DNA from: an uncultured Clostridia bacterium
GTDB lineage: Bacteria > Bacillota > Clostridia > TANB77 > CAG-508
Direction of reading: 5' to 3'
NCBI GenBank assembly: GCA_948485625.1
Contig: CAOMRW010000007.1
Coordinates: forward strand, 10,117 to 74,116
Length of the DNA stretch: 64,000 nucleotides
The first letter of the stretch is position 1. The number at the start of each line of letters is the position of its first letter. A program made the translations under genes and the position numbers. Under the pieces are notes generated by a model, which saw nothing but the letters and a program-made list of their open reading frames with translations, was not told the origin of the DNA and ran no database searches. Positions 157 to 62,236 of the stretch are shown piece by piece.

Positions 157-332
157 ATATAAAATATTGATAAAAAGATGTTTCAAGTATATAATAATAA
201 CGAAAGTGAGTATTTGTTTGAAAGTAAAAGAAAAGAGTTTGTAAGAAGCTACTAAACAGGAATTAGGGAATAAATAAAATTAATAAATTCTTTTTTGAAA
301 TTATCATACTGGTATTAAAAACTGAAAAATAC

Positions 333-361
333 TAGACAAAACAAAGAAAAAGATATATAAT
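333..361 (+). promoter_or_regulatory. candidate sigma-A promoter for the T-box leader
   Basis: TAGACA (333-338), 17-nt spacer, TATAAT (356-361), about 45 nt upstream of the leader. Confidence 0.4.
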
Positions 362-404
362 TATAGCATAATAAATAAAAACAAAGAAAAAGAGGAGTAC
401 ATTT

Positions 405-633
405 AAACACTGATTTAAAGAGAATAGAAGCCAAAGGCTGTAAGCTTCTAAAATAAAGATAAATGGAAGTAACTTTTGAGTTGATAATCTGAAAATAAAC
501 TTAAGATTATTCGTAAAGCTGCGTTAAAGCTAAATAAGATGTTATCTAATATTAAAAATGAAATAGATAATAATTAAGGTGGTACCGTGAGAATAAAGCT
601 CGCCCTTATAGAAATATAAGAGTGAGTTTTTTT
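405..633 (+). promoter_or_regulatory. T-box leader (tRNA-sensing riboswitch), valine specifier GUA
   Basis: Conserved T-box sequence AATTAAGGTGGTACCGTGAG at 572-591. Terminator helix CTCGCCCTTATA/TATAAGAGTGAG (599-626) plus a T-run to 633. AGAGA motif at 418-422. Specifier-loop context GAA-GTA-A at 466-472 just before the CTTT strand that pairs with AAAG (414-417). GUA is a Val codon and valS lies downstream. Confidence 0.8.
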
Positions 634-635
634 AA

Positions 636-704
636 TGTCCAAAAGGGACAGTCACCATTGGACAAAAATGTCCAAATGGAAACGTCCCTCTTGGACATGG
701 GACA
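636..704 (+). repeat. GGGACA/TGTCC hairpin repeat cluster (family A, diverged copy)
   Basis: TGTCCaaaagGGACA, TGGACAaaaaTGTCCA and ATGTCCAA-atggaaACGTCCCtc-TTGGACAT. It aligns with the 49-bp element at 16641-16689 in the same orientation and ends 5 nt before the RBS of the next gene. Confidence 0.8.
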
Positions 705-717
705 GAATGGAGGAAAA

Positions 718-1551
718 ATGTTAACAATAAAAAGTAAAAAGCAAGGAGCTGAATTGACAAGTGTACAATATAATGGAAAAGAAATGTTGTTTCAGGGAGA
801 TGAAAAATTTTGGAATAGACAAGCTCCAATTTTATTTCCAATAGTTGGTAAACTTAAAGACAATAAGACTAAAATAGAAGAAGAATGGTATGAGATGTCT
901 CAACATGGTTTTGCAAGAGATATGAAATTTGAAGAATTTTTAAAAACAGAGACAAAACATGAATACATTTTAAAATATAATGAAGAGACTTTAAAAAAGT
1001 TTCCATACAAATTTGAGCTTAATGTAAAATATGAAATAATAGATAATAAATTATATGTAAGTTATGAAGTGAAAAATGTTGATAATAAAGATATATATTT
1101 TGGATTAGGTGGACATCCTGCTTTCATTTGTGAATATTCTAATGGAGAATATGAAATTGAGTTTGAAGAAAATGAAGATAAGATTGAATTTTTGAAGTTA
1201 AAAGATGGATTGATTGATACAGAAAAAGCAGAAAATATTTTAAATAATAATAAGATTTATTTAAAAGAGGATACTTTTGAAAAAGATGCTATTATAATGA
1301 AAAATATAAAATCAAGTAAAGTTATTTTTCAAAATAATAAGACTAATAAAAAGATATTAGAATTTGATTTTACAGGTTTTCCATATTTAGCAATATGGTC
1401 TAAAAAAGGAGCTCCATTTGTCTGTATTGAACCATGGCAAAATACAGCAGATAAGATTGATAGTAATAATAGTTTTAAAGATAAAGAAAATATAATAAAG
1501 TTAAAAGTTAATGATATATTTTCATGTAAATTTAGTATTAAATTTATATAG
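718..1551 (+). CDS. aldose 1-epimerase (galactose mutarotase-like, LacX-type) family protein
   Basis: The ORF-track start at 622 reads through the hairpin repeat. ATG at 718 is preceded by GGAGG. Family-like motifs: QAPILFPIVGKL, GLGGHPAF, CIEPW. Confidence 0.7.
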   Translation: MLTIKSKKQGAELTSVQYNGKEMLFQGDEKFWNRQAPILFPIVGKLKDNKTKIEEEWYEMSQHGFARDMKFEEFLKTETKHEYILKYNEETLKKFPYKFELNVKYEIIDNKLYVSYEVKNVDNKDIYFGLGGHPAFICEYSNGEYEIEFEENEDKIEFLKLKDGLIDTEKAENILNNNKIYLKEDTFEKDAIIMKNIKSSKVIFQNNKTNKKILEFDFTGFPYLAIWSKKGAPFVCIEPWQNTADKIDSNNSFKDKENIIKLKVNDIFSCKFSIKFI

Positions 1552-1570
1552 TTAAAAGGAGGAAAAATTT

Positions 1571-4252
1571 ATGAGTAATTGTAAAAAATTAAACGACAAA
1601 TATAATCCACAGGAATTTGAAGAAAATTTATATAAAGAATGGGAAGAAAAAGGATATTTTAAACCAAGTATGGATAAAACTAAAGAAAGTTATTGTATAA
1701 TGATGCCACCACCAAATGTAACAGGAAAATTACACATGGGACATGCATTAGATGATACAATACAAGATATTTTAATAAGATTTAAAAGAATGCAAAGATA
1801 TAATACATTATGGCTTCCAGGTTCAGATCATGCTGCAATTGCAACTGAGGTTAAAGTTGTTGAAAAAATGAAAAAAGAAGAGGGGCTTACTAAGGCAGAT
1901 ATAACAAGAGAACAATTTTTAGAAAGAGCATGGGCTTGGACAAAAGAATATGGTGGAACAATTCAGAAACAACAGAAAAGACTTGGATGTTCTTGTGATT
2001 GGGAAAGAAATAGATTTACAATGGATGAGGGATTGTCGGAGGCAGTTTTAGAACAGTTTGTTAATCTATATAATAAAGGATTGATTTATAAAGGTAAGAA
2101 AATGATAAATTGGTGTCCATCATGCCATACAACTATATCAGATGCAGAAGTTGAATATGAAGATGAAGCATCACATTTATGGCATATTAGATATCAAATT
2201 TTAGGAGAAGATAATAGATATATTATAGTTGCAACAACAAGACCTGAAACAATGTTAGGAGATACAGCAGTAGCAGTACATCCTGATGATGAAAGATATA
2301 AAGATTTAATAGGTAAAAAATGTATATTACCAATAATGAATAAAGAAATTCCAATTATAGCAGATGAATTTGTTGAAAAAGAATTTGGAACAGGTTGTGT
2401 TAAAATTACACCTGCACATGATCCAAATGATTATCAAGCTGGATTACGTCATAATTTAGAAATTATTGAAGTTTTTGATGATAGTTCTATAATGGGTGAT
2501 TTGGTTCCTGAATATGAAGGAATGAAAGCTATTGATGCAAGAAAATTAATTGTAGAAAAATTACAAGAATTAGGAAATTTAGTAAAAATTGAAGATTATA
2601 CACATAATGTTGGAAAATGTTATAGATGCCATAATACAATAGAACCAAGAGTTTCTGAACAATGGTTTATAAGTATGAAAGATTTAGCAAAAAGAGCGGC
2701 AGATGAAGTAAGAAATGGAGAAGTTAAATTTGTTCCAAAAAGATATGAGAAAATGTATTTTAACTGGTTAGATAATATTCAAGATTGGTGTATATCAAGA
2801 CAATTATGGTGGGGACATAGAATACCAGTATATTATTGTGAAGAATGTGGACATATGAATGTAACAAAAATAGCACCAGTAAAATGTGAAAAATGTAATT
2901 CAAACAAACTTCATCAAGATGAAGATTCATTAGATACATGGTTTAGTTCGGCATTATGGCCATTCTCAACATTAGGCTGGCCAAATGAAGACACAGAAGA
3001 TTATAAAGTGTTTTATCCAACAAATGTATTAGTTACAGGATATGATATTATAACATTTTGGATATCAAGAATGATGACACAAGGATTAGAACTTACAAAT
3101 CAAAATCCATTCAAAGATGTTGTAGTACATGGTATAGTACGTGATAGCCAAGGAAGAAAAATGTCAAAATCATTAGGAAATGGAATAGATCCAATTGAGA
3201 TAATTGATAAATATGGAGCAGATGCATTAAGATTTTCAGTATTATCTGGAACAACAATGGGAAATGATATAAGATATATGCCAGAAAAATTAGAACAAGC
3301 ATCAAACTTTGCAAATAAAATATGGAATGCTGCAAAATTTGTAATTATTAATTCAGCAGATGAAGAAAAAGTAAGAGAATTTTGCTATGAAGCTTTTGAA
3401 AAAACTAAATCATATAATCCAGAATGTTTTAGATTAGAAGATAAATGGATTTTAAATAAGTTTGATAAATTAGTAGTAGATGTTACTAAAAATATAGATA
3501 ATTATGATTTAGGAATTGCACTTGATAATATTTATAATTTTATATGGAATGAATTTTGTGATTGGTATATAGAAATGGTTAAAACTAGAATATATAGTGA
3601 TGACGAAAATGTAAGAGTTCCTGTGACAGATGTACTTAATCATATTTTAGCATCTTCACTAAAATTATTACATCCATTTATGCCATTCCTTACAGCAGAA
3701 ATTTATAGAAATCTTATAGTATTTGGAACAGAAGATTTAATTGTTGCAAAATGGCCAGATATAAGAAAAGAGTTTGTATTTGATAAAGAGGAAGAGACAG
3801 TTGAGAAAATAAAAGACATAATAGTTGAAATTAGAAATGTTAGAGCAAATATGAATATACATCCATCTAAAAAATCTGAATTAATATTTGTTACAGAAAA
3901 ATATGAAAAAGAAATTTTAGAAGCTAAAGATTTTATTTTGAAATTAGGTTTTGGAACAGATATAAAAGTTCAAAAAGATAAAATAGGAATTGCTGAAAAT
4001 AGTATATCTATTTTAAAAGATGGAATTGAACTTTATATGCCTATTGAAGATTTAGTTGATATGGAAGAAGAAAGAAAGAGATTACAAGAAGAAAAAATAA
4101 AATTAGAAGCGGAAGTTGCGAGATGTGAAAAAATGCTTTCTAATCCTGGCTTTGTAAATAAAGCTCCTGAAAAGAAAATACAAGAAGAAAAGGATAAGTT
4201 AGAAAAATATAGAGATATGCTTACAAAAGTTATGGAAAGACTTGAAAAATAG
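1571..4252 (+). CDS. valS: valine--tRNA ligase
   Basis: 893 aa. Class I signatures HMGH (GKLHMGHAL) and KMSKS (RKMSKSLGN), editing domain and C-terminal coiled coil. RBS AAAGGAGG. A Val T-box lies upstream in the same transcription unit. Confidence 0.97.
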   Translation: MSNCKKLNDKYNPQEFEENLYKEWEEKGYFKPSMDKTKESYCIMMPPPNVTGKLHMGHALDDTIQDILIRFKRMQRYNTLWLPGSDHAAIATEVKVVEKMKKEEGLTKADITREQFLERAWAWTKEYGGTIQKQQKRLGCSCDWERNRFTMDEGLSEAVLEQFVNLYNKGLIYKGKKMINWCPSCHTTISDAEVEYEDEASHLWHIRYQILGEDNRYIIVATTRPETMLGDTAVAVHPDDERYKDLIGKKCILPIMNKEIPIIADEFVEKEFGTGCVKITPAHDPNDYQAGLRHNLEIIEVFDDSSIMGDLVPEYEGMKAIDARKLIVEKLQELGNLVKIEDYTHNVGKCYRCHNTIEPRVSEQWFISMKDLAKRAADEVRNGEVKFVPKRYEKMYFNWLDNIQDWCISRQLWWGHRIPVYYCEECGHMNVTKIAPVKCEKCNSNKLHQDEDSLDTWFSSALWPFSTLGWPNEDTEDYKVFYPTNVLVTGYDIITFWISRMMTQGLELTNQNPFKDVVVHGIVRDSQGRKMSKSLGNGIDPIEIIDKYGADALRFSVLSGTTMGNDIRYMPEKLEQASNFANKIWNAAKFVIINSADEEKVREFCYEAFEKTKSYNPECFRLEDKWILNKFDKLVVDVTKNIDNYDLGIALDNIYNFIWNEFCDWYIEMVKTRIYSDDENVRVPVTDVLNHILASSLKLLHPFMPFLTAEIYRNLIVFGTEDLIVAKWPDIRKEFVFDKEEETVEKIKDIIVEIRNVRANMNIHPSKKSELIFVTEKYEKEILEAKDFILKLGFGTDIKVQKDKIGIAENSISILKDGIELYMPIEDLVDMEEERKRLQEEKIKLEAEVARCEKMLSNPGFVNKAPEKKIQEEKDKLEKYRDMLTKVMERLEK

Positions 4253-4340
4253 ATTGGAATTATAATTGCTAAAGGAATTGATAAGTTAAAATACTATTTA
4301 AGAAAACGAAAATATTGGAAGTGAAGTTTTACCTGAAAAA

Positions 4341-4389
4341 GAAAAGAACTTAATTCAAAAAATTGAATTAAGTTCTTTTCTTTTTTTTT
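4341..4389 (+). terminator. rho-independent terminator of valS
   Basis: GAAAAGAACTTAATTCAA-aaaa-TTGAATTAAGTTCTTTTC (18-bp stem) followed by a 9-T run. Confidence 0.85.
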
Positions 4390-4427
4390 ATGTTATGCTA
4401 AAATTAGAAAAAACATAGGAGGAAAAT

Positions 4428-6143
4428 ATGGAAAATATTGATAAAATATATGATTTATTAAATAGCATAACAGTTACAAAAAATAATGAAGCATATATAA
4501 ATGAAATAAAAGATTTATTAGCAACAGGAAATTATCTTGAAGCATTATCAAAGATGAGAGACTTAAAAGATAAAGAGGATAAAATAAAGGAAGAAGATAT
4601 TATAGAAATAGATGAAGAAGAGGAAGATGCAGATGGAAAGTATCCAAAGCAACTTAGTAATATAGAACTAGAAAGAATATTTATAGGACTATTATTAGAA
4701 AATCCAAAGTTAATAGCAAAGTATTATTTTATATTTGAAATTTGTATGTTTGAAGATGATGAGATGCTTAATATATATAAAAGTGTTTTGTATAATGAGG
4801 GTTCAAAATATTCATCAGAACAAGCAAAAAATAGATTTAATTTTTCAAAAGATACAGAAGAAGTATATGAATTAAAAAATCAATTAATTAAAGAAGTAAA
4901 AGACGAAGATTATAATGTTGAAAAAATATATACAGAATTAAGAAAATTGTTTATACTTAGAAAAGCTTATATAGAGACACCTGAAAAAAATGTACAAGAT
5001 AAAATATTAGAAATAACACAATATCAATTATATGATGAAATGTCATCTGAAGAAGTTGAAGAGACAATAGAACAAGTAAAAATAACGCAGAAATTTAAAC
5101 AATCCATATTAAGTGATGATTTAGTAGAATTTTTATCAAGTGGAGAAAATGAATTAGCAAATGGATTAGAATATCCATTTCCAATAATAACACAAGTATT
5201 TAAAGGAATAAGAAAAGGAGAAACAATGGCATTTGCGATGCCATCAAACTCAGGAAAAAGTAGACTTACAACAAATATGGCAGCATATACAGCCTTAGTA
5301 CACAAAAAGAAAGTATTAGTTATATCAAATGAAATGTCAGAAGAAAAAATGAAACTTTGTTTAATAACTACTATACTTAATCATCCAGAAATACAAAAAA
5401 TACATGGACAAAATTTAAAAATAACAGAAGGTGAATTATTAGAATTCAAATTTAGACCAGATAATAAAAAAGATGCAAAATTAGATGAAGATGGATACAT
5501 TTTAAAAGAAGATGGAGAAACACAAAAACAATTTGTAAAAAGGTTATCAACTATATCATCAGATTTTAATAATGTTATAAAAGCAATAGACTGGGCAAGT
5601 AAACAAATAAAAAATTCAATATATTTTATAAACATTACAGACCATACAAATGACGAATTGAAAAAAGTAATAATAAACTATTATTATAAAGAACATATTG
5701 AATACATTTTTTATGATACATTAAAAACAGACACAAACAATATAGGAAAACCAGAAGAAATAAAAAGAACAGCAACAATATTATCTAATTTAGCACAAAA
5801 TTTTAATATTTTTATATGTTCATCTCTACAACTTGCAGAAAACACAACATCACCAATAAACTTAGATGTAAATGATTTAGCAGTTAGTAGAACAGTAAAA
5901 GAAGTTTTAGATACATTATGCTTATTTAAACAAATAAATAGAGACAGTTTAGATGAATATGAATATTCACTAAATGAAGTTGACACCAAGTTTTTTGATT
6001 TAGAGAAATCAGAAAATCCTGATGTAAGATATTATGCCTGTGTCATTGATAAAAATAGAGCAGGAGCAAAACCAAAATTAGTATTTAGATTAAATTTGGC
6101 TTACAATAGTTGGGAAGAGTTAGGATATTTAAGATTAAAATAA
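4428..6143 (+). CDS. divergent DnaB-family (replicative helicase-like) protein with acidic N-terminal extension
   Basis: DnaB N-domain-like IELERIFIGLLLENPKL. RecA-type C-domain with Walker A AMPSNSGKS, H1a-like VLVISNEMSEEKM, Walker B-like YIFYDTL, SLQLAE, and DKNRAGAKP matching the DnaB KxRNG motif. Own RBS AGGAGG. Confidence 0.6.
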   Translation: MENIDKIYDLLNSITVTKNNEAYINEIKDLLATGNYLEALSKMRDLKDKEDKIKEEDIIEIDEEEEDADGKYPKQLSNIELERIFIGLLLENPKLIAKYYFIFEICMFEDDEMLNIYKSVLYNEGSKYSSEQAKNRFNFSKDTEEVYELKNQLIKEVKDEDYNVEKIYTELRKLFILRKAYIETPEKNVQDKILEITQYQLYDEMSSEEVEETIEQVKITQKFKQSILSDDLVEFLSSGENELANGLEYPFPIITQVFKGIRKGETMAFAMPSNSGKSRLTTNMAAYTALVHKKKVLVISNEMSEEKMKLCLITTILNHPEIQKIHGQNLKITEGELLEFKFRPDNKKDAKLDEDGYILKEDGETQKQFVKRLSTISSDFNNVIKAIDWASKQIKNSIYFINITDHTNDELKKVIINYYYKEHIEYIFYDTLKTDTNNIGKPEEIKRTATILSNLAQNFNIFICSSLQLAENTTSPINLDVNDLAVSRTVKEVLDTLCLFKQINRDSLDEYEYSLNEVDTKFFDLEKSENPDVRYYACVIDKNRAGAKPKLVFRLNLAYNSWEELGYLRLK

Positions 6144-6146
6144 TTA

Positions 6147-6178
6147 GGATTTGGGGACGGGTTAAAAATCCCCATTTT
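6147..6178. repeat. left inverted repeat of the RAYT unit (REP-like)
   Basis: Exact reverse complement of 7005-7036. Contains the internal hairpin GGGGA-cgggttaaaaa-TCCCC. Confidence 0.9.
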
Positions 6179-6234
6179 CTTCTCTTTTATAATATATTTT
6201 ATTGTACATATATTATGAGAGGAGGTTGAGGGAT

Positions 6235-6990
6235 ATGTCAAGGACGTCAAGAAACAGTATTACTTCAAATTTTTTATATATTATAGTTCAAGGAATAGAA
6301 AAAAGTCATATTTTCAATAAAGAACAATACAAAAGAAAATATATTAATTTGATTCAAGAAAATTCAGAAAAGTTTGATATTTCAATTATTTCATTTTGTG
6401 TAATGAATAATCATGTACATTTATGTTTGTATTATAATAATATAAAAGATGTTTCAAGTTTTATGCATAGAATAAATACTTTATATGCAAATTATTATAA
6501 TTTCTTAGAAAATAGAGTTGGCTATGTTTTTAGAAATCGTTATTATTCAAAAGAGATAAAAGATAGAAATCAATTATTTAATACAATGGTTTATATTCAT
6601 AAAAATCCTATAGAGGCAAATTTAGTTAAGTTTATTAATGAGTGGAGTTTTTCAACATATAATGATTATATTAATCATAAAATTGAAGACAAAATAATTA
6701 TGATTGTTTTTCAAAAACAAGAATATATTGATATTTTTAATAAAATTCATAGTAGAAAACATTTTACTGAAGTGTTTGATGTGGAAGAAAGAAAAAGTGC
6801 TAAAGAAATAATAAAAGAGTATTTGCTTGATATAAATATGTCTTTGGAACTTGTATGTAAAGAAAAAAATTTATTATTAGAGTTGATTAAGAAAATGAAA
6901 TATGAGGGGAGAATTTTAAATAAAGTTATATCTAAAGAATTAAAGATAAATAAGAATACAGTTACTAGAATGCTAAGAAAAATACAATAA
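6235..6990 (+). CDS. REP-associated tyrosine transposase (IS200/IS605-like Y1 HUH transposase) with C-terminal HTH
   Basis: HUH motif in MNNHVHLCLYY. Tyr motif region RNRYYSKE...VYIHKNPIEANLV. C-terminal HTH-like ISKELKINKNTVTRMLRKI. ATG at 6235 follows GAGGAGG; the track start at 6202 lacks an RBS. Confidence 0.75.
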   Translation: MSRTSRNSITSNFLYIIVQGIEKSHIFNKEQYKRKYINLIQENSEKFDISIISFCVMNNHVHLCLYYNNIKDVSSFMHRINTLYANYYNFLENRVGYVFRNRYYSKEIKDRNQLFNTMVYIHKNPIEANLVKFINEWSFSTYNDYINHKIEDKIIMIVFQKQEYIDIFNKIHSRKHFTEVFDVEERKSAKEIIKEYLLDINMSLELVCKEKNLLLELIKKMKYEGRILNKVISKELKINKNTVTRMLRKIQ

Positions 6991-7004
6991 AAATAAAAAT
7001 AAAG

Positions 7005-7036
7005 AAAATGGGGATTTTTAACCCGTCCCCAAATCC
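7005..7036. repeat. right inverted repeat of the RAYT unit (REP-like)
   Basis: AAAATGGGGATTTTTAACCCGTCCCCAAATCC. Abuts and overlaps the stop codon of the convergent carboxypeptidase gene by 1 nt. Confidence 0.9.
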
Positions 7037-8283
7037 TAACTTCTTAATAAGTCAATCCAACTATAAATAATCTTTTTAGACATAGTAAATAAATTAATTT
7101 TATCAATATCAGAAGATGCAATTAAATTGACACTTGCGATTTTATTTCCATCTAAAGAAAATGTTACTTGACCAAGTTTATCTCCTTTATGTATAGGTGC
7201 TTCAATATTATTATTTATTTCTATTGATTGAGAAATTTGACTTTCTTTACCTTTTTCAATTAAAGCTCCTGCATGACTTTCTAAAATAGCATCGGTATAG
7301 TTTTTTACACCTTTATTTACAGTGACTGATTGTATAATATCATTTTTGTTTCCAAAACTTTTAAATGAAAATTTACTAAAACCATAGTCTAATAATTTTT
7401 GGGCTTCTGCAAATCTTACTTTAGTAGATGGTGCTTTCATGATTACTGCAATTAAAGATAGATCACCACGTGTAGCGCTTGCAGATAAATTGTATAAAGC
7501 AAGGGAGGTTGAACCAGTTTTTAAGCCAGTAATTCCTTTATATGTTTTTATTAGTTTATTTGTATTGACTAATTGAGATTTACCATCTCTTAAGCTATCC
7601 ATCCATATTGTTGTGTATTTTGTTATATCAGGATGATTTTGTAATAATTCACGAGACATTAATGATATATCATAGGCAGATGTTATATGCCCGTCTTCGT
7701 CAATGCCATGACAGTTTTTAAAACAAGTATCATTCATTCCTAATTCTTTTGCTTTATCATTCATCATTTGGACAAATGCTTCTTCTGAACCTGCGATGTG
7801 TTCTGCCATTGCTACTACACAATCATTAGCAGATACAACACATATTGCTTTTAACATTTCATCAACTGTTAAAGTTTCTCTTGGGTCTAACCATATTTGT
7901 GAACCTCCCATAGAACGTGCAGTTTCTGAACAACTAATTGCATCTGAGTATGATAATGTTCCATTATCAATTTGTTCCATGATTAATAATATACTCATTA
8001 TTTTTGTGACAGATGCAGGGCGTAGTTGTTCATGAATATTATGAGAATATAATATTTGACCTGTTGTTTGTTCAATTAAAATTGCAGAACCACTTTCAAG
8101 ATTTAATGAATTAGTATTTTCATTTTCTGAGTTTATTTTTACTGTATCTGATGAATTTACTGTTATTGCATCTGTTTCAGATGACCATATGTATGAACTT
8201 GATGAATCATATCCTAATGAATTTATTGATATACATATGATTAAGATTAATGAAATTATTATTATCCTTTTTATATTTTTCAT
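7036..8283 (-). CDS. serine-type D-Ala-D-Ala carboxypeptidase (peptidase S11, DacB/DacF-like)
   Basis: Signal anchor. SxxK (ASVTK), SxN (SAND) and KTG (LKTGST) motifs, plus a C-terminal beta-sandwich domain. Confidence 0.85.
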   Translation of the reverse strand: MKNIKRIIIISLILIICISINSLGYDSSSSYIWSSETDAITVNSSDTVKINSENENTNSLNLESGSAILIEQTTGQILYSHNIHEQLRPASVTKIMSILLIMEQIDNGTLSYSDAISCSETARSMGGSQIWLDPRETLTVDEMLKAICVVSANDCVVAMAEHIAGSEEAFVQMMNDKAKELGMNDTCFKNCHGIDEDGHITSAYDISLMSRELLQNHPDITKYTTIWMDSLRDGKSQLVNTNKLIKTYKGITGLKTGSTSLALYNLSASATRGDLSLIAVIMKAPSTKVRFAEAQKLLDYGFSKFSFKSFGNKNDIIQSVTVNKGVKNYTDAILESHAGALIEKGKESQISQSIEINNNIEAPIHKGDKLGQVTFSLDGNKIASVNLIASSDIDKINLFTMSKKIIYSWIDLLRS

Positions 8284-8514
8284 TTAGTACCTCCAATATT
8301 GTTGTATGAAATTTAAAGTTTTATAGTTTTCCATACAAAATTTTATATTTTAATATAAATATATGTTACTTATATAGTTTTAGAATTAGGTTTTGTAAAA
8401 TAAAAGCTATGTTTTATAAAATATGTATTAACTTTTTAGTTGTTTATGATATAATTTATGTTAAGCTAGGTAGTATAATGTAAATATGTTTTCAAAAGAA
8501 AGGATGACAGTGAT

Positions 8515-9164: not shown

Positions 9165-9248
9165 GCAGATGTGGCGGAACTGGTAGACGCGCTGGTCTTA
9201 GGAACCAGTGTCAACGACGTGGGGGTTCGAGTCCCTTCATCTGCACCA
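9165..9248 (+). tRNA. tRNA-Leu (anticodon TAG), CCA encoded
   Basis: Acceptor GCAGATG/CATCTGC. Anticodon arm CTGGT-CTTAGGA-ACCAG. Long variable arm. T-loop GGTTCGAGTCC. Terminal ACCA. Confidence 0.93.
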
Positions 9249-16640: not shown

Positions 16641-16689
16641 TGTCCCCAATGGGACAAAAATGTCCCAAAAGAAACGTCCCTTTGGGACA
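16641..16689 (+). repeat. 49-bp hairpin repeat (family A), identical inverted copy at 56214-56262
   Basis: TGTCCC-caat-GGGACA aaaa TGTCCCAAA-agaaACGTCCC-TTTGGGACA. The exact reverse complement occurs at 56214-56262. Ends 1 nt before the RBS AGAGGAGG. Confidence 0.95.
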
Positions 16690-27500: not shown

Positions 27501-27562
27501 CAAAAGGGGTGTCCCTTTTTGGCATAAAATATGTGACAAAAAGACACGCCCCCTTTGTCACA
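27501..27562. repeat. hairpin repeat pair (family B)
   Basis: CAAAAGGG-gtgt-CCCTTTTTG, then TGTGACAAA-aagacACGCCCCC-TTTGTCACA (27532-27562). Same architecture as 59644-59680. Confidence 0.8.
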
Positions 27563-27578
27563 AAATAGGGTGATGAGT

Positions 27579-28235
27579 ATGAAAAAAGTAATAAAGTATG
27601 TAATAATATTTATTTTAATAGTTATATTAATAGTATTATCAATTAATTTCTATCTTATAATTTCTACTAAAAATCAAATTCTTGAAGTGGAAAATGCAAA
27701 TTTAGATAATGTAGATTGTATATTAGTTTTGGGAGCTGGAATATGGGGAGATAAGCCAAGTCCGATTTTAGAAGATAGATTATTAACAGGAATTGAATTA
27801 TATAAAAATAATGTATCTTCTAAAATAATAATGAGTGGAGACCATGGAAGAGAAGAATATGATGAAGTAAATATAATGAAGAGTTTTGCAATAGAAAAAG
27901 GAATTCCATCAGAAAATATTTTTATGGACCATGCAGGTTTTTCTTCATATGATAGTATATATAGAGCAAAAGAAATTTTTAATTGTAAAAAGATAATTAT
28001 AGTAACACAGAAATATCATTTATATAGAGCAATATATATTGCAAATCAGTTAGGAATTGAAGCGTATGGGGTTAATTCAGATCCTAGACAATATGTAGGT
28101 GCTACTTATAGAGAAGTAAGGGAGATACTAGCTAGAAATAAAGATTTTCTAAAATGTATATTTAAGCCAGCGCCAACATTTTTAGGAGAAACTATTCCTG
28201 TAAGTGGTAATGGAGATATTACAAATGATAAATAA
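27579..28235 (+). CDS. sanA: SanA/YdcF (DUF218) family protein
   Basis: N-terminal TM. CILVLGAGIWGDKPSPILEDRL...IIMSGDHG...HAGFSSYDS. The track start at 27555 (TTG) reads through the hairpin repeat. Confidence 0.7.
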   Translation: MKKVIKYVIIFILIVILIVLSINFYLIISTKNQILEVENANLDNVDCILVLGAGIWGDKPSPILEDRLLTGIELYKNNVSSKIIMSGDHGREEYDEVNIMKSFAIEKGIPSENIFMDHAGFSSYDSIYRAKEIFNCKKIIIVTQKYHLYRAIYIANQLGIEAYGVNSDPRQYVGATYREVREILARNKDFLKCIFKPAPTFLGETIPVSGNGDITNDK

Positions 28236-28236
28236 G

Positions 28237-28314
28237 TGGTGATTGGGGGCCAGGTCTTGAATCCCCATTTTTTTATATAAAAATGGAGATTCAAGACCTG
28301 GCCCCCAATCACCA
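28237..28314. repeat. 78-bp REPIN-like palindrome (family C)
   Basis: TGGTGATTGGGGGCCAGGTCTTGAATCCCCATTTTT / loop / reverse complement, one mismatch. Starts 2 nt after the sanA stop, between convergent genes. Confidence 0.92.
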
Positions 28315-36284: not shown

Positions 36285-37457
36285 ATGGAATATAAATACT
36301 TATTAGATATTGGATTAATAATAGTAGTAGTAAAGATATTTACATTAATAACGCAAAAAATAAAGATGCCAAAAGTATTAGGTGGATTAATAGCAGGAAT
36401 AGTGCTGGGACCAGCAATGTTAGATATTGTACAAAATAGTACAATATTGGAGGCATTATCAAAATTTGGAATAATTTTAATAATGTTTTTAGCAGGTATG
36501 GAAACAAGTATAAAGAAATTTATATCAAATAGTAATAAGTATATAGTAATAGCTTCAATAGGAGTAATAGTTCCATTGATTTTAGGTACATTAGTTAGTC
36601 TTATATATGTACAAGATTTGAAAATGAATTTATTCTTTGGAGCAGTTATAACAGCCACATCAGTTAGTATAACAGTAGAGACTTTGATAGAAATGAAGAA
36701 AATAAAATCTAGTGTAGGAATGGCAATATTAGGAGCAGGTGTTGTTGATGATATAATAGGGATTGTATTTTTGACTATAGTTATGAATAGTGGGAATTTA
36801 CAAGTATCAACCTTTACTTTAATGATGTTAAAAATAATAATATTCTTTTTAATGGCAATAATTTTAGGGTTACTATTATTTAAAGTATTTGAGAAAATTG
36901 AAGAAAAAGATATAAAATCAGAGCAGATGCCTACATATTCAATAGCTTTTGCTTTGATATTGGCTTATATTGCTGAGAGATTAGGAGTTAGTGGAATTAT
37001 TGGAGCGTATATAGCAGGATTAGTTATAGGTAATACAGAAAAGGGAAGAAAAGTAAAGGGAAAGATAGATTTAGTAGTACACATGATTTTTTCACCAATA
37101 TTTTTTGCAAGTATAGGTTTAAATTTAACAACATTAAGTCTTAATAAACCAGTATGGATATTTATAATAATATTTACAGGAGTTACAATAGTTAGTAAAA
37201 TAATAGGAAATGGTTTAGGAGCAAAACTATGTGGTTATACAAATGATAAAGCAGTTCAAATTGGAATAGGGATGGCTACAAGAGGTGAAGTTGCACTTAT
37301 TATGGCAGATGAAGCAAAGAAATTGGGATTGATAAATGAGGAAATATTTTCTATTGTTATAATAACAGTTCTATTAGTGACAATAATAACTCCAATGTTA
37401 TTACATTATAGCTTTATGAAAAATACTGTTATAGAAGATGCTAAGAATAATCCTTGA
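36285..37457 (+). CDS. cation:proton antiporter (Na+/H+ exchanger family, CPA2-like)
   Basis: About 11 TM helices. LGGLIAGIVLGP and FLAGMET motifs typical of the Na_H_exchanger family. Confidence 0.8.
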   Translation: MEYKYLLDIGLIIVVVKIFTLITQKIKMPKVLGGLIAGIVLGPAMLDIVQNSTILEALSKFGIILIMFLAGMETSIKKFISNSNKYIVIASIGVIVPLILGTLVSLIYVQDLKMNLFFGAVITATSVSITVETLIEMKKIKSSVGMAILGAGVVDDIIGIVFLTIVMNSGNLQVSTFTLMMLKIIIFFLMAIILGLLLFKVFEKIEEKDIKSEQMPTYSIAFALILAYIAERLGVSGIIGAYIAGLVIGNTEKGRKVKGKIDLVVHMIFSPIFFASIGLNLTTLSLNKPVWIFIIIFTGVTIVSKIIGNGLGAKLCGYTNDKAVQIGIGMATRGEVALIMADEAKKLGLINEEIFSIVIITVLLVTIITPMLLHYSFMKNTVIEDAKNNP

Positions 37458-37465
37458 TTATGTTT

Positions 37466-37544
37466 GTGGTGATAGGGGGCCAGGTCTTAAATCCTCATTT
37501 TTGTATAAAAAATGGGGATTTAAGACCTGGCCCCCTATCACCAC
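37466..37544. repeat. 79-bp REPIN-like palindrome (family C)
   Basis: GTGGTGATAGGGGGCCAGGTCTTAAATCCTCATTTTT / loop / reverse complement, one mismatch. Lies between the convergent antiporter and peroxiredoxin genes. Confidence 0.92.
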
Positions 37545-37556
37545 CATGGACTTTTT

Positions 37557-38105
37557 TTAATTACATTCATTATTAGTTTTTTCACAAATCTCTGGTGGCT
37601 GTTTAAAACTTAGATACCAACTAATACCATTTTGATTTTCGTTTATAGCATTTTGCCTTTCTTCTAATTCACAGAATGTTTGAGGTGGGGGGACAATAAC
37701 AGGTTGCCCAGGCATCCAGTTTGCAGCAGTAGAGCCTTTACTACAATCAGCCATTTGTAATGCTTGAACTGTTCTTATAATTTCAGGTATGAATCTACCA
37801 ACATTTAATGGATAAATCATAATTGTTCTTATAATTTGTTTATCATCAATTATAAAAACATTTCTAACTGTTTCTGTTGTACTTATATCATTTGAAATCA
37901 TTCCATACTTTCTTGCGATTTGACCGCTTCTATCTGCAACAATAGGGAATGGAAGTTTAATACCAGTTTTACAATATATATCATATATCCATGCTAAATG
38001 AGATGGATTGCTATCAATACTTAATCCTAAAAGTTCTGTATTCATTTGCTGAAAATATGTATAAGCTCTTGAGAATGCTATCATTTCTGTTGTACAAACA
38101 GGGGT
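37557..38105 (-). pseudogene. peroxiredoxin (Prx6/1-Cys-like), C-terminal 182 codons, separated from its 5' part by the integrated element
   Basis: Minus-strand reading from 38105: TPVCTTEMIAFSRAYTYFQQMNTELLGLSIDS...IVADRSGQIARKYGM...VFIIDDKQIIR. It has no promoter or start of its own upstream of the Cys. Confidence 0.85.
38098..38105. repeat. 8-bp att core, left copy (attL)
   Basis: ACAGGGGT, identical to 51246-51253. Corresponds to codons T-P-V of the peroxiredoxin. Confidence 0.75.
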
Positions 38106-39359: not shown

Positions 39360-42300
39360 ATGAAAAAACATTTAAAAAATAATAAAAGTAAACTTAAATA
39401 TATTTTTAGAATAAGTACAATTACTGTTTTATTATTAATGGTGTTTTTAGGAGTAATTTATGCAGTAAGCAATTTTTCTACAAAAGGTGAGTTAAATGAT
39501 GATGGAGAAATAAATTATGCTGATGTAAGTTTATTACAATTACATTTAATACATTCAAAAGAATTACCAGAAGATAAGTTAGAAAATGCTGATATGAATA
39601 ATGATGGAGAAATAACAATAACAGACTTAAATCTTTTAATTAAAAAGATAGAAAAAACAATAGAATATGAAGCAACAGTAAGAGAGATAGAAGTAAATAA
39701 TTATTATCCAAATAGAAATGAAGAAATAACAATAAGTTTAGATATTGATGTGACTTATAGTATTGATATTAAAACTATAACTATTAGTGGAAAAGAATAT
39801 GAAACAGTAAAAAATGAACAAAATTTATATGAAGTTAAATTAAATGTAGGAGACATAAATGGTGTAAAAGAATATGCAATTGAAAAACTAACTCTTATAA
39901 ATGAAGAACAAATTAAAGTAAATAAAACAGTTAAAGTAGAAGTATTAAAATCACAACCTCAAATTGAAAACTGGATATTAACAGAAGACTTAGAAAAATC
40001 AGAATTAAATATATCATTTGATGTAGTAGATTCTGATGAAGCAATAACAGGAACAGGAGAATATATAATTACTGAAAAGAAGGAAGAAACTGAAAGTTCA
40101 GAAGAGACAAATTATATACAACATGGGGGAGTAGAAGTTGGTACTAATAAGATAAATGTAAAAGTGGAAGAAAACAAGAAATATCAAATATTAGTAAATG
40201 TACCATACAACTTAGATACAGATACTTTAGAACAAGAAGTAGACAATACAGGAAGACTTACAAAAGATGAAGAATTAATACTTATAAAAGATTATGAATT
40301 CCAATTATCTAATATAAAAATTTATAAAGAAGAACATGAAGACGAAACTTCAGAAGAATTTAATTTAGAAGAAAATATAATAGTAAAATTTGATAGTACA
40401 AATGGAACAGAATATTTACCTCAAATTGCAATTATAAATGGAAAAAGATATGAGCTTACAAAAGAAAACAATACATATACAACATTTATAGATGGATTTA
40501 ACAATACAGGTAATCAAAAAATAACTATAGAAAAGGTTATTTTAGATAATGGAAAAGAATTTGAAGTAAATCAAGAAACACAAGTAAAAATAATAAAAAA
40601 TGCACCAACTGTTGCAAGATTTAGAAGCCATGAGAATACAGAAGAAAAGAACATGGATATGCTTATATTTGTAAAAGATAAAGATAAAACAATAACTAAT
40701 TTAACTGTAAAATTAGTTGATGAAAATGATAATGAAATTACATCAAGAGATTTAACAGAGCATTTAAAAGATGAAAACTTAAATGATAGTGAAGAAGAAG
40801 ATATAAAAAATACATATTATATAAATACAAGTATAAATTTAGAAAATGTGCAATTACCAGATAAATATAAAATAAAATTGATTGCAACTTATTGTTTGTC
40901 TGAAAATGAGGAAAATTACACATATACAAAAACTCTATTAGAAAATGAAGAAGAATCTAATCCAATTGTTAATATAGAAAATGTACAAATATCAAATAAA
41001 TATCCTGAAAAAGGAGAAAATATTACATTAACATATAAAATAGAAACAAATAAGGAGAACACTAATATAACACATATTAGAGTAAATAACTTAAGATGTA
41101 TTGCAACAAAAAATATAGATGAGCAAGGAAATGCAACATATTCTGTAACTCTAAATGCAGGAGAAACAGCAGGTATAGTAGACTTAAATACAACAGACAT
41201 TATATTTGAAGAAAATACATCGGTTGGTGTAACAAACCAAGTAAAAATAGATGTTTTAAAAGAAAAACCTACAAGTGAAGCATTCTCACAAATAGATGAC
41301 ATAAACAATAGATCTGTAAGATTAACTGCAAACATAGTAGACCCAGATAAAGCATTTATAACTGGAAAAGCAGAACTTGTAAGAAACAGTGATAGTGAAA
41401 TAGTAGCGACTAAAACATTTGATGCTGAACACATTACTTTTGAAATAAATAATATTGAATTAGGAACACAATATACATTAATTGCAAAAATGACATATGA
41501 TAGAGATACTAATGAAATAGAAGAAGAAACAAATCAAAACTATGTAGAAGATGAAATATTCAGAGAAAGACCAATTCAATTAATTGCAGATTATCAGCTA
41601 GAAATAAATAATATAAAAACATATAATGGAGAAAAAGAAACAAAATATTTTGAAAGAGGACAAGAAGTAACAGTAAGTTTTGATAGTATTAACCAAACAG
41701 AATTCTATCCAGTTTATGCAATTATAAATGGAAAACAATATGAATTAGAAAAAGTAGAACAAAATTATAAAACAAAGATACCAGTAGTTTCTGCATTTGG
41801 ACCAAAAACAATTACAATTGAAAAAGTAATTTTAAATAATACAAAAGAAATTGAATTAACAGAAAATAATGAAATACGAGTAGGAATATTAAAATTAAGA
41901 CCAACTATTACAGATTTTGGATATAGTGAAAATGCAGATAATGGAAATATTGATGTATCATTTAAAGTAAATGATACAGAAGATGCAATAACAGATGGAA
42001 CTATAAAAGTAATAAATGAAAACGGAGATAAAATAAAAGAAGAAAAATTAACTGGCAATTCAAATGGAATAAGCTTTGAAAAAGGCGTTTGTGAGGAATT
42101 TGAAATACAAATACTTGCAGATTATGATTTAGATACAAATCAAATTACAACTGGAGATAATGAATATGAAAATCAACAATTACTTAAAGAAGGAATTAAT
42201 ATAAGTGCAGAGCGTTTGATTGAAGTAAAAGATATTATAACAATAAATCTATATTCAAAAGAAGACCCAACAGCAGAAGTTAGTAGTATAACAGAAGAAA

Positions 42301-45300
42301 AATTGTCTACATTAGATAATTATATAGTAAAAGTTATACAAAAAGAGATGCCTGTATTCTATGCTAAAATAAAGAGCTATGAAATAACAGAAGATGGAAA
42401 TCTAGATTTTATTTTAGATTATGATAATGTAATTCAATATGAAAATGGCAAAAAACAAAATAAATTAAAAGTTACGTATGGTAAAGTAAATAATGGAGTT
42501 GCTGAAAATAAGAGTATAGAAGCTTTAATTGCAGAAATAGAAGCAAATCCAGATGGAGACTTTACACTAACACAAGACTATGATGTATCTTATTTAAAAA
42601 CAACAAATAGTTCACTTATTACATGTGAGTTTAGAGGTACATTAAATGGAAATGGACACAAAATATATAATTTGGGTAAACCATTATTTGATACACTAGA
42701 AAGTGCAACAATTCAAAATATTCAATTAGAAAAAGTGAATTTAATGGATGCAACAAGTAGAGGAAGTATAGCAAATATTGCTACAAATACTACTATAAAA
42801 AATATACACATTAAGAACTTGAATATAACAACAAAGGTAAACCAAGTAGGTGGAATTGTTGGTGATTTGAATTCAGGAAATATTGAAGAATGTAGTATAA
42901 GAAATTATAATTTAAATACATCTGGTCATATCAGAGTAGCAGGAATTGCTGGTGCAATGACAGGAGGAACAATTAAAAATTGTTATGTACAAGGTGAAGT
43001 GCATTCAACTCAGACTAAAGATGGTAATGGAATAGGAGGTATTTTAGGTCACGCATTAGAAAATACACCAGTTACTATTGAAAACTGTATTACAAAAATA
43101 AATTATGTATGGAGTGGTGGAGGACCTAGACTTAATGGTGCCATAATAGGATTAGGAAATGGTACAGTTGCAACTTTAAAAAATAATGTAAGTTTATCAA
43201 CTGGTACAGGTGTTTATAAAGTACATGGTGGTAATATTAATCCAAATGCTTCTACTAATAACTATGAACTAGAAGAATCTGAATTAATATCTAATGCTTC
43301 AGGAGAAAGAGTAAAGAAAGTTTCTAAAGATAATATAACAAAAGAATTCTTTAAAGATAGTGCAAAATTTGATGAAAATGTATGGAATTTAGATGATGTG
43401 TCTTATGACCATATGCCAACATTAAAAGGAAATAAACAACAAGAAAATGAAACAGAAACAGATACAGAAGAGATAGATGCGAACTTATATATACCAGAAT
43501 ATGATAGAATAAAAAATACACCAGGATTTAATACAAATAAATTAATAGCATATAATAATATACAAAAATTAATGCCATATTATGATGCAAAATATGTAGT
43601 ATTAGATAGTGTTAGTATATCAAATACAGATACATTAAATACAAAAACTATAAAACATATACTACCATTTGCAGACAATAAACTTGTAACATATTTAACA
43701 TCAAAAGCATATAACGGAATAACAAGTATAAAAGTTGTATTCACTGATTATACTGTAGAACAATATGAAGTAAACTTTGAAAAACTTATGGGAAATATTG
43801 CAATATATAAAATACCAGAATTAAATCTAAGTTATGCATTTGGAAATTATATTGTAAATGAAAATTCAGAAGTTGTAAAAAAACTAGCTGATTATATCAA
43901 ATCATTAGATTATAACACAGTATTAGAGCCACTTACTGCAGCAGCAGATAGCAGATTATATAGAGATAATTATAATAATGTAATTAAAAATATGGCAGAA
44001 GAAATGGCACTTCAAATTTTACAAAATGATGAATGTAGTATACTTATGTTAAATAATGAGATTCTAAACAAAAAAATAGAAAAAGAATTAATTGGAACTG
44101 AAAAAATAAATAAAATGATATATGCTTATAATTATTATCAACGTTGGTATGGATTTGAAATAGGTGGTGCAAGAGTATCAGACATATTACTATTTGAAGG
44201 TAAAATGTATTCAAATTCAATGACATTTTATAATGTACTAAATGAAGTACTTGTAGGAAATCTAAATCCAGGAGGAACAGATGGATTTTATACAAGTTGT
44301 CTAAAAAAATATACAGGAAGTTCAACTGTTGGCTATTTCCTAAATTATATAATAGCTAATATTGGTGGATATGAAGATGTAAATGACTGGTTTACTGAGT
44401 ATTTTGGTGCTAGAAATATACTAGCTGAAGTTTCAGTAGATCATCTACCTGAAATAGGGTATCGTGGTTGGTATCAACTTACCAAAAAGGCAAAAATGAT
44501 ACTTCCAGTTATTACTTTACCAAATGATTGTGCGTATATGATTTCTGGACCTGCTCATTTACAATTTGGACCTTCACAATTATATCATAAAGATCCTCAG
44601 ACTGAAGCTGGAAGAACAGAAGTTGAAAACAAAGTAAATAATCATGTTAAACTTGTAAAAAGCCATTTTTCTACTTTAGCAGATTCATTTGACTATAAAA
44701 AATGGAATAACTACTGTATTATGGTCTATGATTGTACAAAAATAATTACAGGTTATAAAAATACTTATTTCCCTGGTACAAATATTGTAATATCAACAGG
44801 TCCAGTTTATACACAAGGAAAAGTTGGTCTAGAATATCCATTCTTTAAGAATTTTAGTGAAGTTTTTGGACTATGGCAACCAGGTGGTAGCTCAGCTGGT
44901 GTAGGTAATACTGCTGGATTCCTATGGTTTCAAGCAAGACCAGGACTTACTAATTTTGATACTTGGACACACGAATTTGAACACGCTTTATATGATAAAA
45001 TAATGTTATATCAACGTGGTGCTAGAGTGCAACTTGAAACACTTACAGAAGGTAATGTTCAACAATATGCTAATTGGAGTGAAAACAATCTTACTCAAGA
45101 TGTTGGACCATATTACTTTAATACATCTTTCTATTTGAATAAAGAAGGTAATGCGACTCAAAATCTAACTCCTGAGAGAATTAATACAAGGGAAAAATTA
45201 GAAAATTATTATAAAGGACAACAAAATGCACTAGATTTACTAGATTATATTGAAGGAAAAGCATTTATTAGATTAACACCAGAACAACAAGCAAAGATTG

Positions 45301-56213: not shown

Positions 56214-56262
56214 TGTCCCAAAGGGACGTTTCTTTTGGGACATTTTTGTCCCATTGGGGACA
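56214..56262 (-). repeat. 49-bp hairpin repeat (family A), exact inverted copy of 16641-16689
   Basis: Begins immediately after the DUF2207 stop codon. The reverse complement is identical over all 49 nt to 16641-16689. Confidence 0.95.
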
Positions 56263-61693: not shown

Positions 61694-61708
61694 TATAATT
61701 TCAAAGTA

Positions 61709-62050
61709 GAGTAAATTGAATAGTCGCTGGTAAATTCCGAAAGGAACTACGAGAGGAAAGTCCGGGCTCCATAGAGCAATGATGCTAGATAACGTCTAGT
61801 GGGGGCGACCCTAAGGAAAGTGCAACAGAAAATAACCGCCTGTAATGGTAAGGGTGAAAAGGCGAGGTAAGAGCTCACCGCTTCTATGGTGACATAGGAG
61901 GCTGTGTAAACCCCATCTGGAGCAACACCTAAAAAAGAAGATTAAGCCTGCTCGGCAACTTCTTAAATTGCGTGGCTTGAGATATATAGTGATATGTATC
62001 CTAGATAAATGACTATTTTTGATGACAGAACCCGGCTTACAGATTTACTC
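61709..62050 (+). ncRNA. rnpB: RNase P RNA (bacterial, Firmicute type B)
   Basis: Universal GAGGAAAGTCCGGGCTCCATAG and ACAGAACCCGGCTTA elements. P1 pairing GAGTAAAT (61709-61716) with ATTTACTC (62043-62050). T-run afterwards. Confidence 0.92.
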
Positions 62051-62236
62051 TTTTTTTATTTTTATTAGATGTTAGAGATTTTAAATTGGGCAAGTTAATT
62101 TGTTATCCAGCAGAAGAAGTTTTATTAGAGATAGAAGAGATAATGTTATATTGAGGGATAATTTATATAATAATAAAAAACAAAGTTTTTATAAATGAAG
62201 TTTTAGATTCTAGACAAAATAAAATATATTATAAAA

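Follow-up and report, generated by a model that had tools for sequence, protein, structure and literature searches.

A nuclease gene between terminal inverted repeats

The DNA analysed here (the window) is a stretch of 64,000 nucleotides from contig CAOMRW010000007.1 of an uncultured Clostridia bacterium (assembly GCA_948485625.1, positions 10,117 to 74,116), and within it a unit of 896 bp (6144-7039) consists of a single gene for a Y1-type HUH nuclease of the RAYT family, enclosed by inverted repeats (the arms) and located between two convergent genes. The available evidence points to a domesticated nuclease gene that has been retained, together with its arms, by vertical inheritance under purifying selection. 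The features of the locus are the following:

6144-6190, plus strand: left terminal inverted repeat (TIR), with an exact core at 6147-6178, the G-rich box GGGGACGG and the inner block AAATCCCCATTTT
6186-6225, plus strand: possible promoter of the gene itself by consensus match, TTTATA-17-TATATT (9/12), with a ribosome-binding site AGGAGG (6220-6225), starting inside the left arm boundary
6235-6990, plus strand: RAYT-family Y1 HUH nuclease gene, 251 amino acids (aa), with a catalytic domain at about 1-150 (H60/H62, Y120, N124-P125, S140), a linker at 175-188 and a C-terminal helix-turn-helix (HTH) at about 189-248
6993-7039, minus strand: right TIR, with its exact core at 7005-7036
4428-6143, plus strand: upstream neighbour, DnaB_C-like, 571 aa, with a weak and partial DnaB_C match
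7036-8283, minus strand: downstream neighbour, a Peptidase_S11/PBP5 D-Ala-D-Ala carboxypeptidase by Pfam

The arms are built around the 32-mer GGATTTGGGGACGGGTTAAAAATCCCCATTTT, which occurs exactly twice in the window, at 6147-6178 on the plus strand and at 7005-7036 on the minus strand, one being the exact reverse complement of the other; no further copy with up to three mismatches was detected in the window and none of 100 shuffles gave a match, which confirms the inverted repeat reported in a first-pass annotation of the same sequence. The repeat extends beyond this core to 47 nt at 94% identity (6144-6190/6993-7039). A single open reading frame (ORF) is found between the arms, with a likely ATG start at 6235 and its stop codon at 6988-6990, while promoter-like sites in the region are not more numerous than in shuffles. 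The left arm starts one base past the TAA (6141-6143) of the DnaB_C-like gene and the right arm contains the TAG stop codon (7036-7038, minus strand) of the PBP5 gene. The convergent neighbours described in the first-pass annotation are present as stated. In the relative L001 the TAG of the arm itself is the stop codon on both sides, and in every lineage both neighbours have their stop codons adjoining or within the arms.

The encoded protein carries the motifs NHVHL (N59-H60-V-H62-L) and Y120-IHKNP, as had been noted in the first-pass annotation, and its sole Pfam match is Y1_Tnp (4.8e-11). Among NCBIfam models, the REP-associated tyrosine transposase (REP_Tyr_transpos) scores 62.3 bits (E 4.5e-17) as compared to 21.9 bits (1.6e-4) for the IS200/IS605 family transposase. 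A search of 5.8 billion proteins retrieved 114 homologues, nearly all of about 250 aa, and an exhaustive search of 1.84 billion cluster representatives returned 94 matches at E<=1e-30 and 15,610 at E<=1e-3, the latter number indicating that the broader family is large. An alignment of 42 homologues shows no variation at N59, H60, H62, N124, P125 and S140, and Y120 is shared by at least 90% of the sequences. According to Quentin et al. (2018, PMC6006769), all class-2 (TnpA_REP) proteins are characterised by an HUH motif combined with Y---NP, both of which are present in the window protein.

When the 42-sequence profile was compared to the PDB, the E. coli TnpA_REP structure 4ER8 was matched at 1.8e-6, and the Sulfolobus IS200 and ISDra2 TnpA structures (2F4F/2XM3) at E values of about 0.6-0.8. 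In an AlphaFold2 model (mean predicted local distance difference test score 89.7) the catalytic domain ends at about residue 150, and a linker modelled with low confidence (175-188) precedes five helices at 189-248; Foldseek ranked 4ER8 first among PDB entries (E 1.6e-6, TM score 0.73 on target, 153 columns), followed by IS608 at 1e-4 and with ISDra2 also behind. Both the profile and the predicted fold thus place the protein closer to E. coli TnpA_REP than to the IS200/IS605 transposases, in agreement with the earlier view of a RAYT-like protein rather than an ordinary IS200 transposase, for which a profile search had been proposed. The extra C-terminal HTH, likewise part of that earlier description, is supported by the C-terminal helices together with HTH family matches across family members (HTH_24, HTH_23, HTH_28, Sigma70_r4 and HTH_7), among which HTH_23 was found in 5 and HTH_28 in 4 of the 42 members, with best E values of 4e-5 and 1e-4 that are, like all others, below the Pfam cut-offs.

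In the lineage with 61% identity (P0010; L066-L070) the protein has 229 instead of 251 aa owing to a 66-nt in-frame deletion (22 aa) aligned to window positions 6715-6780, which disrupts neither the arms nor the reading frame. Situated between catalytic domain and HTH, the missing segment extends from a helix of the model (165-173) to within the linker of low confidence, and seems to be dispensable.

Vertical inheritance and constancy of the arms

The relatives that were compared share 96, 72, 67 and 61% aa identity with the window protein, and flanking DNA is visible for the 67% and 61% lineages. Both of these have the gene order ValRS, DnaB_C-like protein, nuclease and PBP5 in common with the window, and are collinear with window positions 268-8315 at about 82% nucleotide identity. 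Between lineages, the ratio of non-synonymous to synonymous substitution rates (dN/dS) is 0.25-0.35 and dS is 0.5-0.7. Across all five aligned lineages each arm is unchanged over 30 nt, and over 34 nt (6145-6178 in the left arm) in the four lineages with contigs of sufficient reach, while single-nucleotide polymorphisms in the arms are confined to two individual contigs. Nothing else in the neighbourhood is as constrained as the arms, and some 60 neutral sites would not remain identical by chance at a dS of 0.7. Because the slot is fixed and the arms are unchanged at dS 0.5-0.7, with dN/dS about 0.3, the gene appears to be domesticated and the arms functional, and the comparisons argue for a nuclease gene that is fixed in the chromosome, passed on vertically and subject to purifying selection. 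The first-pass annotation had named multiple identical gene copies as an outcome that would contradict it; in the 64-kb window the gene is present in one copy, inherited vertically, and no second RAYT was found there.

The 72% lineage is known from 902-bp Logan contigs only, which start and end in the arms, and many other homologue contigs are about 900-1000 bp long. Such arm-bounded ends are explained by the fact that a 31-mer assembly graph breaks at an inverted repeat of at least 31 nt, even if this is single-copy. More generally, Logan k=31 contigs (L062-L065, L076-L080) systematically end in the arms and in the long type-2 palindromes described below, examples being the 902-bp contigs with the nuclease gene alone and contigs that stop 35-68 nt past the stop codon of an antiporter gene located next to one of the palindromes. 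Arms and type-2 palindromes are therefore a practical cause of fragmented metagenome-assembled genomes (MAGs) and of short-read assembly breaks in this clade.

In some genomes of the 61% lineage (L066 10880-20690, L069 and L070) PBP5 is interrupted by a conjugative element, at a distance of about 800 bp from the right arm and at a site orthologous to the window from about 7824 onward, and is thereby truncated from 371 to 213 aa. This element encodes HTH_36, a type IV secretion system (T4SS) pilin, PrgI, a VirB4-like ATPase, TrbL, an M23 peptidase, a sortase and SpaA-type surface proteins, and the sister contigs L067 and L068 are without it.

Class of the unit and dispersed relatives of its arms

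As the arms lack a GTAG tag and a single arm folds weakly, they are to be regarded as TIRs and not as classical REPs. RAYT-like genes flanked by long TIRs instead of GTAG REPs have been named TIRYTs/TIRtrons, their TIRs carrying a GGGGWSAS box and in some cases forming moderately abundant families of singlets or dimers (Di Nocera et al. 2013, PMC3733652). In the window, GGGGACGG matches the TIRYT box GGGG[AT][CG]A[CG] at 7/8 positions and is located 9 nt inside the arm; the exact box occurs in the arms of a 30% homologue (L074, GGGGTCAG) and downstream of a 47% homologue (L091, GGGGACAG, minus strand), and a 38% homologue (L005) possesses its own flanking inverted arms, GAAATTTAGGGACGCTCGAAAAATTTC. 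The 47% homologue (protein P0012) has no upstream arm, and downstream of it (L091 1098-1152) are three short arm cores in alternating orientation, GGATTAGGGGACAGG, GGATTTTTGGGGCCG and GGATTTGGGGACGG; since these are devoid of the AAATCCCCATTTT half, the outer G-rich half is suggested to be the conserved recognition core. A conserved single-arm hairpin was also considered: L005 shows two seemingly compensatory changes in a GGATTT/AAATCC stem, but folding favours another weak stem, and as the arm copies of L030 (see below) break this stem and lengthen a GGGGA(T)/(A)TCCCC stem, no conserved hairpin is claimed.

It has been reported that 20 of 26 TIRYTs fall into TnpA_REP subclass 2.1, which contains the longest proteins, with a C-terminal HTH of the Bac_DnaA_C, HTH_23 or HTH_28 type, which has been equated with RAYT group 1 of Bertels et al., and next to whose genes no REP-like sequences were found in that survey (Quentin et al. 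2018, PMC6006769). This class has already been recorded in Clostridia, and is the largest RAYT group in one study (Bertels et al. 2017, PMC5581495) and the second-largest Y1 subclass in another (PMC6006769). Judged from sequence and model, the published class TIRYT/TIRtron, i.e. TnpA_REP subclass 2.1 or RAYT group 1, fits the window unit feature by feature, namely in length, HTH, Y---NP, TIRs, G-rich box and related dispersed dimers, although it is placed in subclass 2.1 by features and not by tree. Both have a long Y1 RAYT-like protein with Y---NP and a C-terminal HTH, long TIRs with a GGGG-W-S-like box (7/8 positions in the window arm) and without GTAG, a low copy number, and TIRs that sometimes occur as singlets or dimers elsewhere in the genome. 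The element thus belongs to an already described kind and is not a new one. It goes slightly beyond the published picture in its strict synteny, in its frozen arms in an uncultured gut Clostridia clade of 26% GC, and in the accompanying perfect hairpins of 80-100 bp that form a sister family: group 1 has been described as the most insertion sequence (IS)-like RAYT group, whereas the window lineage shows strict synteny and arms that stayed frozen at dS 0.7, and subclass 2.1 was without nearby REP-like repeats in the 2018 survey, whereas the window has related long hairpins about every 20 kb.

The E. coli TnpA_REP (YafM)/REP-BIME and Pseudomonas RAYT-REPIN systems (groups 2 and 3) resemble the window unit in several respects: 4ER8 is its best sequence and fold match, the gene is single-copy and vertically inherited with inverted repeats bracketing it, and dispersed doublets occur as long intergenic hairpins just past stop codons. 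In contrast to these systems, the window unit has no GTAG and no stable single-arm hairpin, its protein has an extra HTH (251 versus 165 aa), and its palindromes, numbering 3 per 64 kb, are not identical to the flanking arms. With the TnpA of IS200/IS605 elements (IS608, ISDra2) the protein shares the HUH/Y1 fold (TM score about 0.6 on targets) and presumably the same single-strand cleavage chemistry, but the co-oriented subterminal hairpins, absence of TIRs, multiple copies and frequent tnpB of these elements do not apply to the window unit, and IS200/IS605 TnpA has a Y...Q-type motif unlike Y---NP.

For mobile DNA maintained through vertical descent, the RAYT-REPIN association is the best example. 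To our knowledge, nearly everything that is known about it comes from Proteobacteria and from short, hairpin-binding enzymes, and we know of no biochemistry for the long HTH-bearing type (subclass 2.1/group 1/TIRYT), whose link to dispersed repeats is disputed in the literature. In this regard, the locus represents a clean test case, combining a compact enzyme, arms that are constant at every base across species and candidate substrates nearby; the practical gain is modest and consists in a good construct for in vitro work.

The candidate substrates are three long palindromes, hereafter referred to as type 2 to distinguish them from the arms of the gene (type 1):

28237-28314, no strand: arms of 39 nt at 95%, arm TGGTGATTGGGGGCCAGGTCTTGAATCCCCATTTTT, 2 nt after the stop codon of ORF 27555-28235; RNA -67.6 kcal/mol, z -11.3
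37466-37544, no strand: arms of 37 nt at 97%, between the convergent genes 36285-37457 (plus) and 37557-38084 (minus); RNA -71.4 kcal/mol, z -12.9
47426-47528, no strand: perfect arms of 49 nt; RNA -107.7 kcal/mol, z -20.4

The three (78-103 bp, arms of 37-49 nt at 95-100%, loops of 0-5 nt) form one family with the arm consensus GTGGTGATAGGGGGCCAGGTCTTAAATCCCCATTTTT, and the hairpin of the third reaches about 47413-47542 through copy-specific outer sequence. All are intergenic, two of them beginning 2 and 9 nt past a stop codon, and a terminator scan at these palindromes was negative. They have the architecture of REPINs, i.e. two inverted units forming one long hairpin, in intergenic position and in several copies. 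An ORF of 2644 aa (39360-47294) ends 132 nt before the largest of them.

Their relationship to the arms is most evident in the inner 13-mer: with up to one mismatch, AAATCCCCATTTT occurs 7 times in the window versus 0.44 expected, and all 7 occurrences lie within the two arms and the three palindromes. The type-2 arm is identical to the arm of the gene at 25/37 positions, a score reached by 0/5000 shuffles, although the similarity resides mostly in the 13-mer and is marginal elsewhere (p about 0.04; 221/5000 shuffles as good). The blocks GAT-W(1-3)-GGGG, GGGG.C.RGG and AAATCCCCATTTT are in the window essentially confined to the eight arms, in the same order, register and polarity, and the 13-mer points inward both in the arms of the gene and in the type-2 palindromes, a geometry that would be expected of arm pairs minus the gene. 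The first-pass annotation had proposed that the arms share sequence with palindromes at 28237, 37466 and 47420 (here 47426), and this relatedness is borne out at 25/37 positions; the palindromes are not copies of the arm and, by sequence, represent a sister family. Similarly, its RAYT-REPIN system is upheld as far as a RAYT-type gene and arm-related palindromes are concerned, while the arms, being TIRs without GTAG, make TIRYT/TIRtron the appropriate class, and the role of the nuclease gene as mobiliser of the type-2 family is not established because the palindromes are only 25/37 identical to the arm.

Palindrome 2 recurs at its position in five conspecific Logan contigs, which were obtained from other samples and encode an identical antiporter protein; 5/5 of them end inside the palindrome. 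A decayed type-2-like remnant was found in the 61% lineage (L066 4270-4355). A comparison of presence and absence at orthologous sites by means of the antiporter gene (36285-37457) was abandoned, as the 80-89% homologues in three lineages are not syntenic. This cation:proton antiporter has hundreds of homologues at 80-89% identity, with unrelated contexts in the three lineages, twice beside T4SS or Fic/Bro-N genes, and the gene may travel on mobile elements. Paralogues with type-2 arms were likewise sought, and the 47% homologue P0012 was rejected as such, having no paired arms and type-1-like cores downstream only.

By means of a pattern that accommodates either type of arm, copies of the type-1 arm were searched for in 185,579 species genomes, a collection without the source species or a close relative. 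A stand-alone doublet of the 27-nt core of the arm, with a 14-nt spacer, was detected in Clostridia bacterium RGIG2063 (L030 4906-4975), and a singlet of this core in an uncultured Clostridium MAG (L053), with no RAYT in the 8 kb and 1.9 kb examined, respectively; a ruminant-gut MAG (L047) shows a partial arm-like match. These matches indicate that arm copies exist away from the gene, at least in relatives. A scan of IMG/VR gave nothing.

Proposed activity, rival explanations and other features of the window

On balance, we consider it rather probable that the gene encodes a domesticated Y1 nuclease, which binds and cleaves at its arms and works in trans on palindromes derived from them. The unit would then be a domesticated TIRtron, with one long-type RAYT Y1 HUH ssDNA (single-stranded DNA) nuclease gene between the TIRs that it recognizes and cleaves; the gene would no longer be mobile, having kept one chromosomal slot through speciation, wedged against the stop codons of two convergent genes, and the enzyme would act in trans, most likely on short palindromic doublets of the same arm kind. 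It is envisaged to bind the G-rich box (GAT-W-GGGG-N-C-R-GG) and the inner AAATCCCCATTTT block and to cut and rejoin ssDNA via Tyr120 and the HUH metal site, as a result of which dispersed REPIN-type hairpin elements would be seeded or maintained. DNA binding, cleavage chemistry, mobilisation and the cognate palindrome family are what we infer here, chemistry and mobilisation from the family. A more far-reaching proposal, which we regard as rather doubtful, is that this single frozen TIRYT gene, in a clade of uncultured gut Clostridia, maintains a population of arm-derived hairpins, including type-1 doublets, the 80-100-bp type-2 palindromes and perhaps the GGGAC/GTCCC units described below. 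If true, the locus would be a Gram-positive counterpart of the vertically inherited proteobacterial REPIN-RAYT 'replicator' systems, and subclass 2.1 enzymes would have cognate repeats, none of which were found in the 2018 survey. In this case the extra HTH might read a G-rich box as the recognition signal, in place of a REP hairpin.

A number of observations weigh against a domesticated nuclease acting on arm-derived palindromes. The NCBIfam score of 62.3 bits is under the curated equivalog cut-off of 80, which speaks against that equivalog and not against membership of the RAYT superfamily, as the model appears to be tuned to the short proteobacterial type. A single arm as ssDNA folds weakly, with a GGGGA(T)/(A)TCCCC stem and an 11-nt loop (-4.7 kcal/mol, z -0.7), and because single arms are poor hairpins, hairpin recognition as in E. 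coli TnpA_REP is not evident. The homologues L071-73 (35%) and L091 (47%) are without paired arms. The species-genome scan gave 46 matches, about 43 of which were single chance matches in unrelated phyla and only those in L030 and L053 real, and the 4 matches of a JGI metagenome scan were all in unrelated DNA of 49-63% GC. In addition, the palindromes are only 68% identical to the arms, and arms abutting two stop codons could be conserved partly for reasons of the neighbouring genes.

The last two points lead to the main rivals. The type-2 palindromes could have a different partner elsewhere in the genome, either a paralogous TIRYT with exact type-2 arms or an unrelated transposase mobilising miniature inverted-repeat transposable elements, with the gene-plus-arms unit as proposed above and the shared 13-mer reflecting common ancestry of two TIR families; this is compatible with the first half of the preferred model, and we give it a smaller though appreciable chance. 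A paralogue is conceivable as partner because each tnpA_REP described matches its own repeat family (PMC6006769), and many paralogue-like homologues of 40-47% identity exist in similar metagenomes. While the limited identity of the arms outside the 13-mer is also in line with a separate partner, the 64-kb window contains no second RAYT, the one 47% homologue examined carries type-1-like cores and not type-2 arms, and the three shared blocks have the same order and polarity in both families. Recruitment of the nuclease for a host function that has nothing to do with repeat mobilisation, with the arms conserved as regulatory or structural elements at the transcript ends of the neighbours or as a long-range RNA duplex that controls the gene, is in our view unlikely. 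It would account for the contact of the arms with both stop codons in every lineage and for the T-rich tract after a small GGGGA/TCCCC stem (minus-strand RNA -15.7 kcal/mol, z -2.4), and is in keeping with a report on RAYT group 1 according to which flanking 16-mers occur only 12 times per replicon (Bertels et al. 2017, PMC5581495). However, a terminator scan found nothing at either arm, the loops are of 11 nt, and the plus strand folds no better than shuffles (z -0.5), so the suggestion of the first-pass annotation that the arms may act as terminators receives no support; moreover, a terminator does not need all 34 positions, including loop and unpaired bases, to be fixed at dS 0.7, and the 27-nt core of the arm is also found at unrelated loci in other genomes.

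An ordinary, currently mobile IS of the IS200/IS605 type is very improbable. The Pfam match to Y1_Tnp ('Transposase IS200 like'), the sharp boundaries and the many homologue contigs of about 900-1000 bp, a length distribution often seen for assembled repeats, are what such an element would display, but the ends are inverted and not co-oriented, the protein has Y---NP in place of the IS200 tyrosine motif, tnpB is missing, and IS200 scores are far weaker than TnpA_REP scores. Furthermore, the window holds one copy, which occupies the same chromosomal slot across dS 0.7, and the ends of the 902-bp contigs follow from the breaking of a 31-mer graph at a single-copy inverted repeat.

As regards the neighbouring genes, the DnaB_C (replicative helicase) match of the 571-aa protein amounts to 34 bits over residues 246-316, and the TIGR DnaB model gives 31 bits versus a cut-off of 385. 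This unusual, long DnaB-like protein is kept beside the nuclease gene in all syntenic relatives. Additional features of the window are the following:

375-610: T-box leader, upstream of a 309-aa gene and valS
636-705, plus strand: diverged copy of the GGGAC unit
9165-9245: the one tRNA
16641-16689, plus strand, and 56214-56262, minus strand: 49-nt GGGAC unit, 100% identical in opposite orientation
61708-62055: class A RNase P RNA, 297 bits

The class A RNase P and T-boxes at 26% GC fit Clostridia, rather than Bacilli or Mollicutes, in accordance with the Clostridia-like host assumed in the first-pass annotation. No Rfam family overlaps the arms, the palindromes or the related repeats.

The third repeat of the window is the 49-nt unit TGTCCCCAATGGGACAAAAATGTCCCAAAAGAAACGTCCCTTTGGGACA, in which GTCCC and GGGAC half-sites alternate; GGGAC[AG] occurs 26 times in the window versus 8 expected, and two copies of the unit are located directly upstream of a ribosome-binding site. 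One of its ends, ATTGGGGACA(C), resembles ATTTGGGGACG of the arm and the TIRYT box, and an 89% match to the unit was found at L030 1923-1959, in the MAG with the arm doublet. Judged by its sequence, the unit could be another substrate of the nuclease or the binding array of a regulator. In the window, a variant of this unit is located in the intergenic region (610-715) that separates the T-box leader from the first gene of the valS operon; in L066 the corresponding region (4239-4381) contains a decayed type-2-like palindrome. This spot seems to be a recurrent landing place for palindromic elements.

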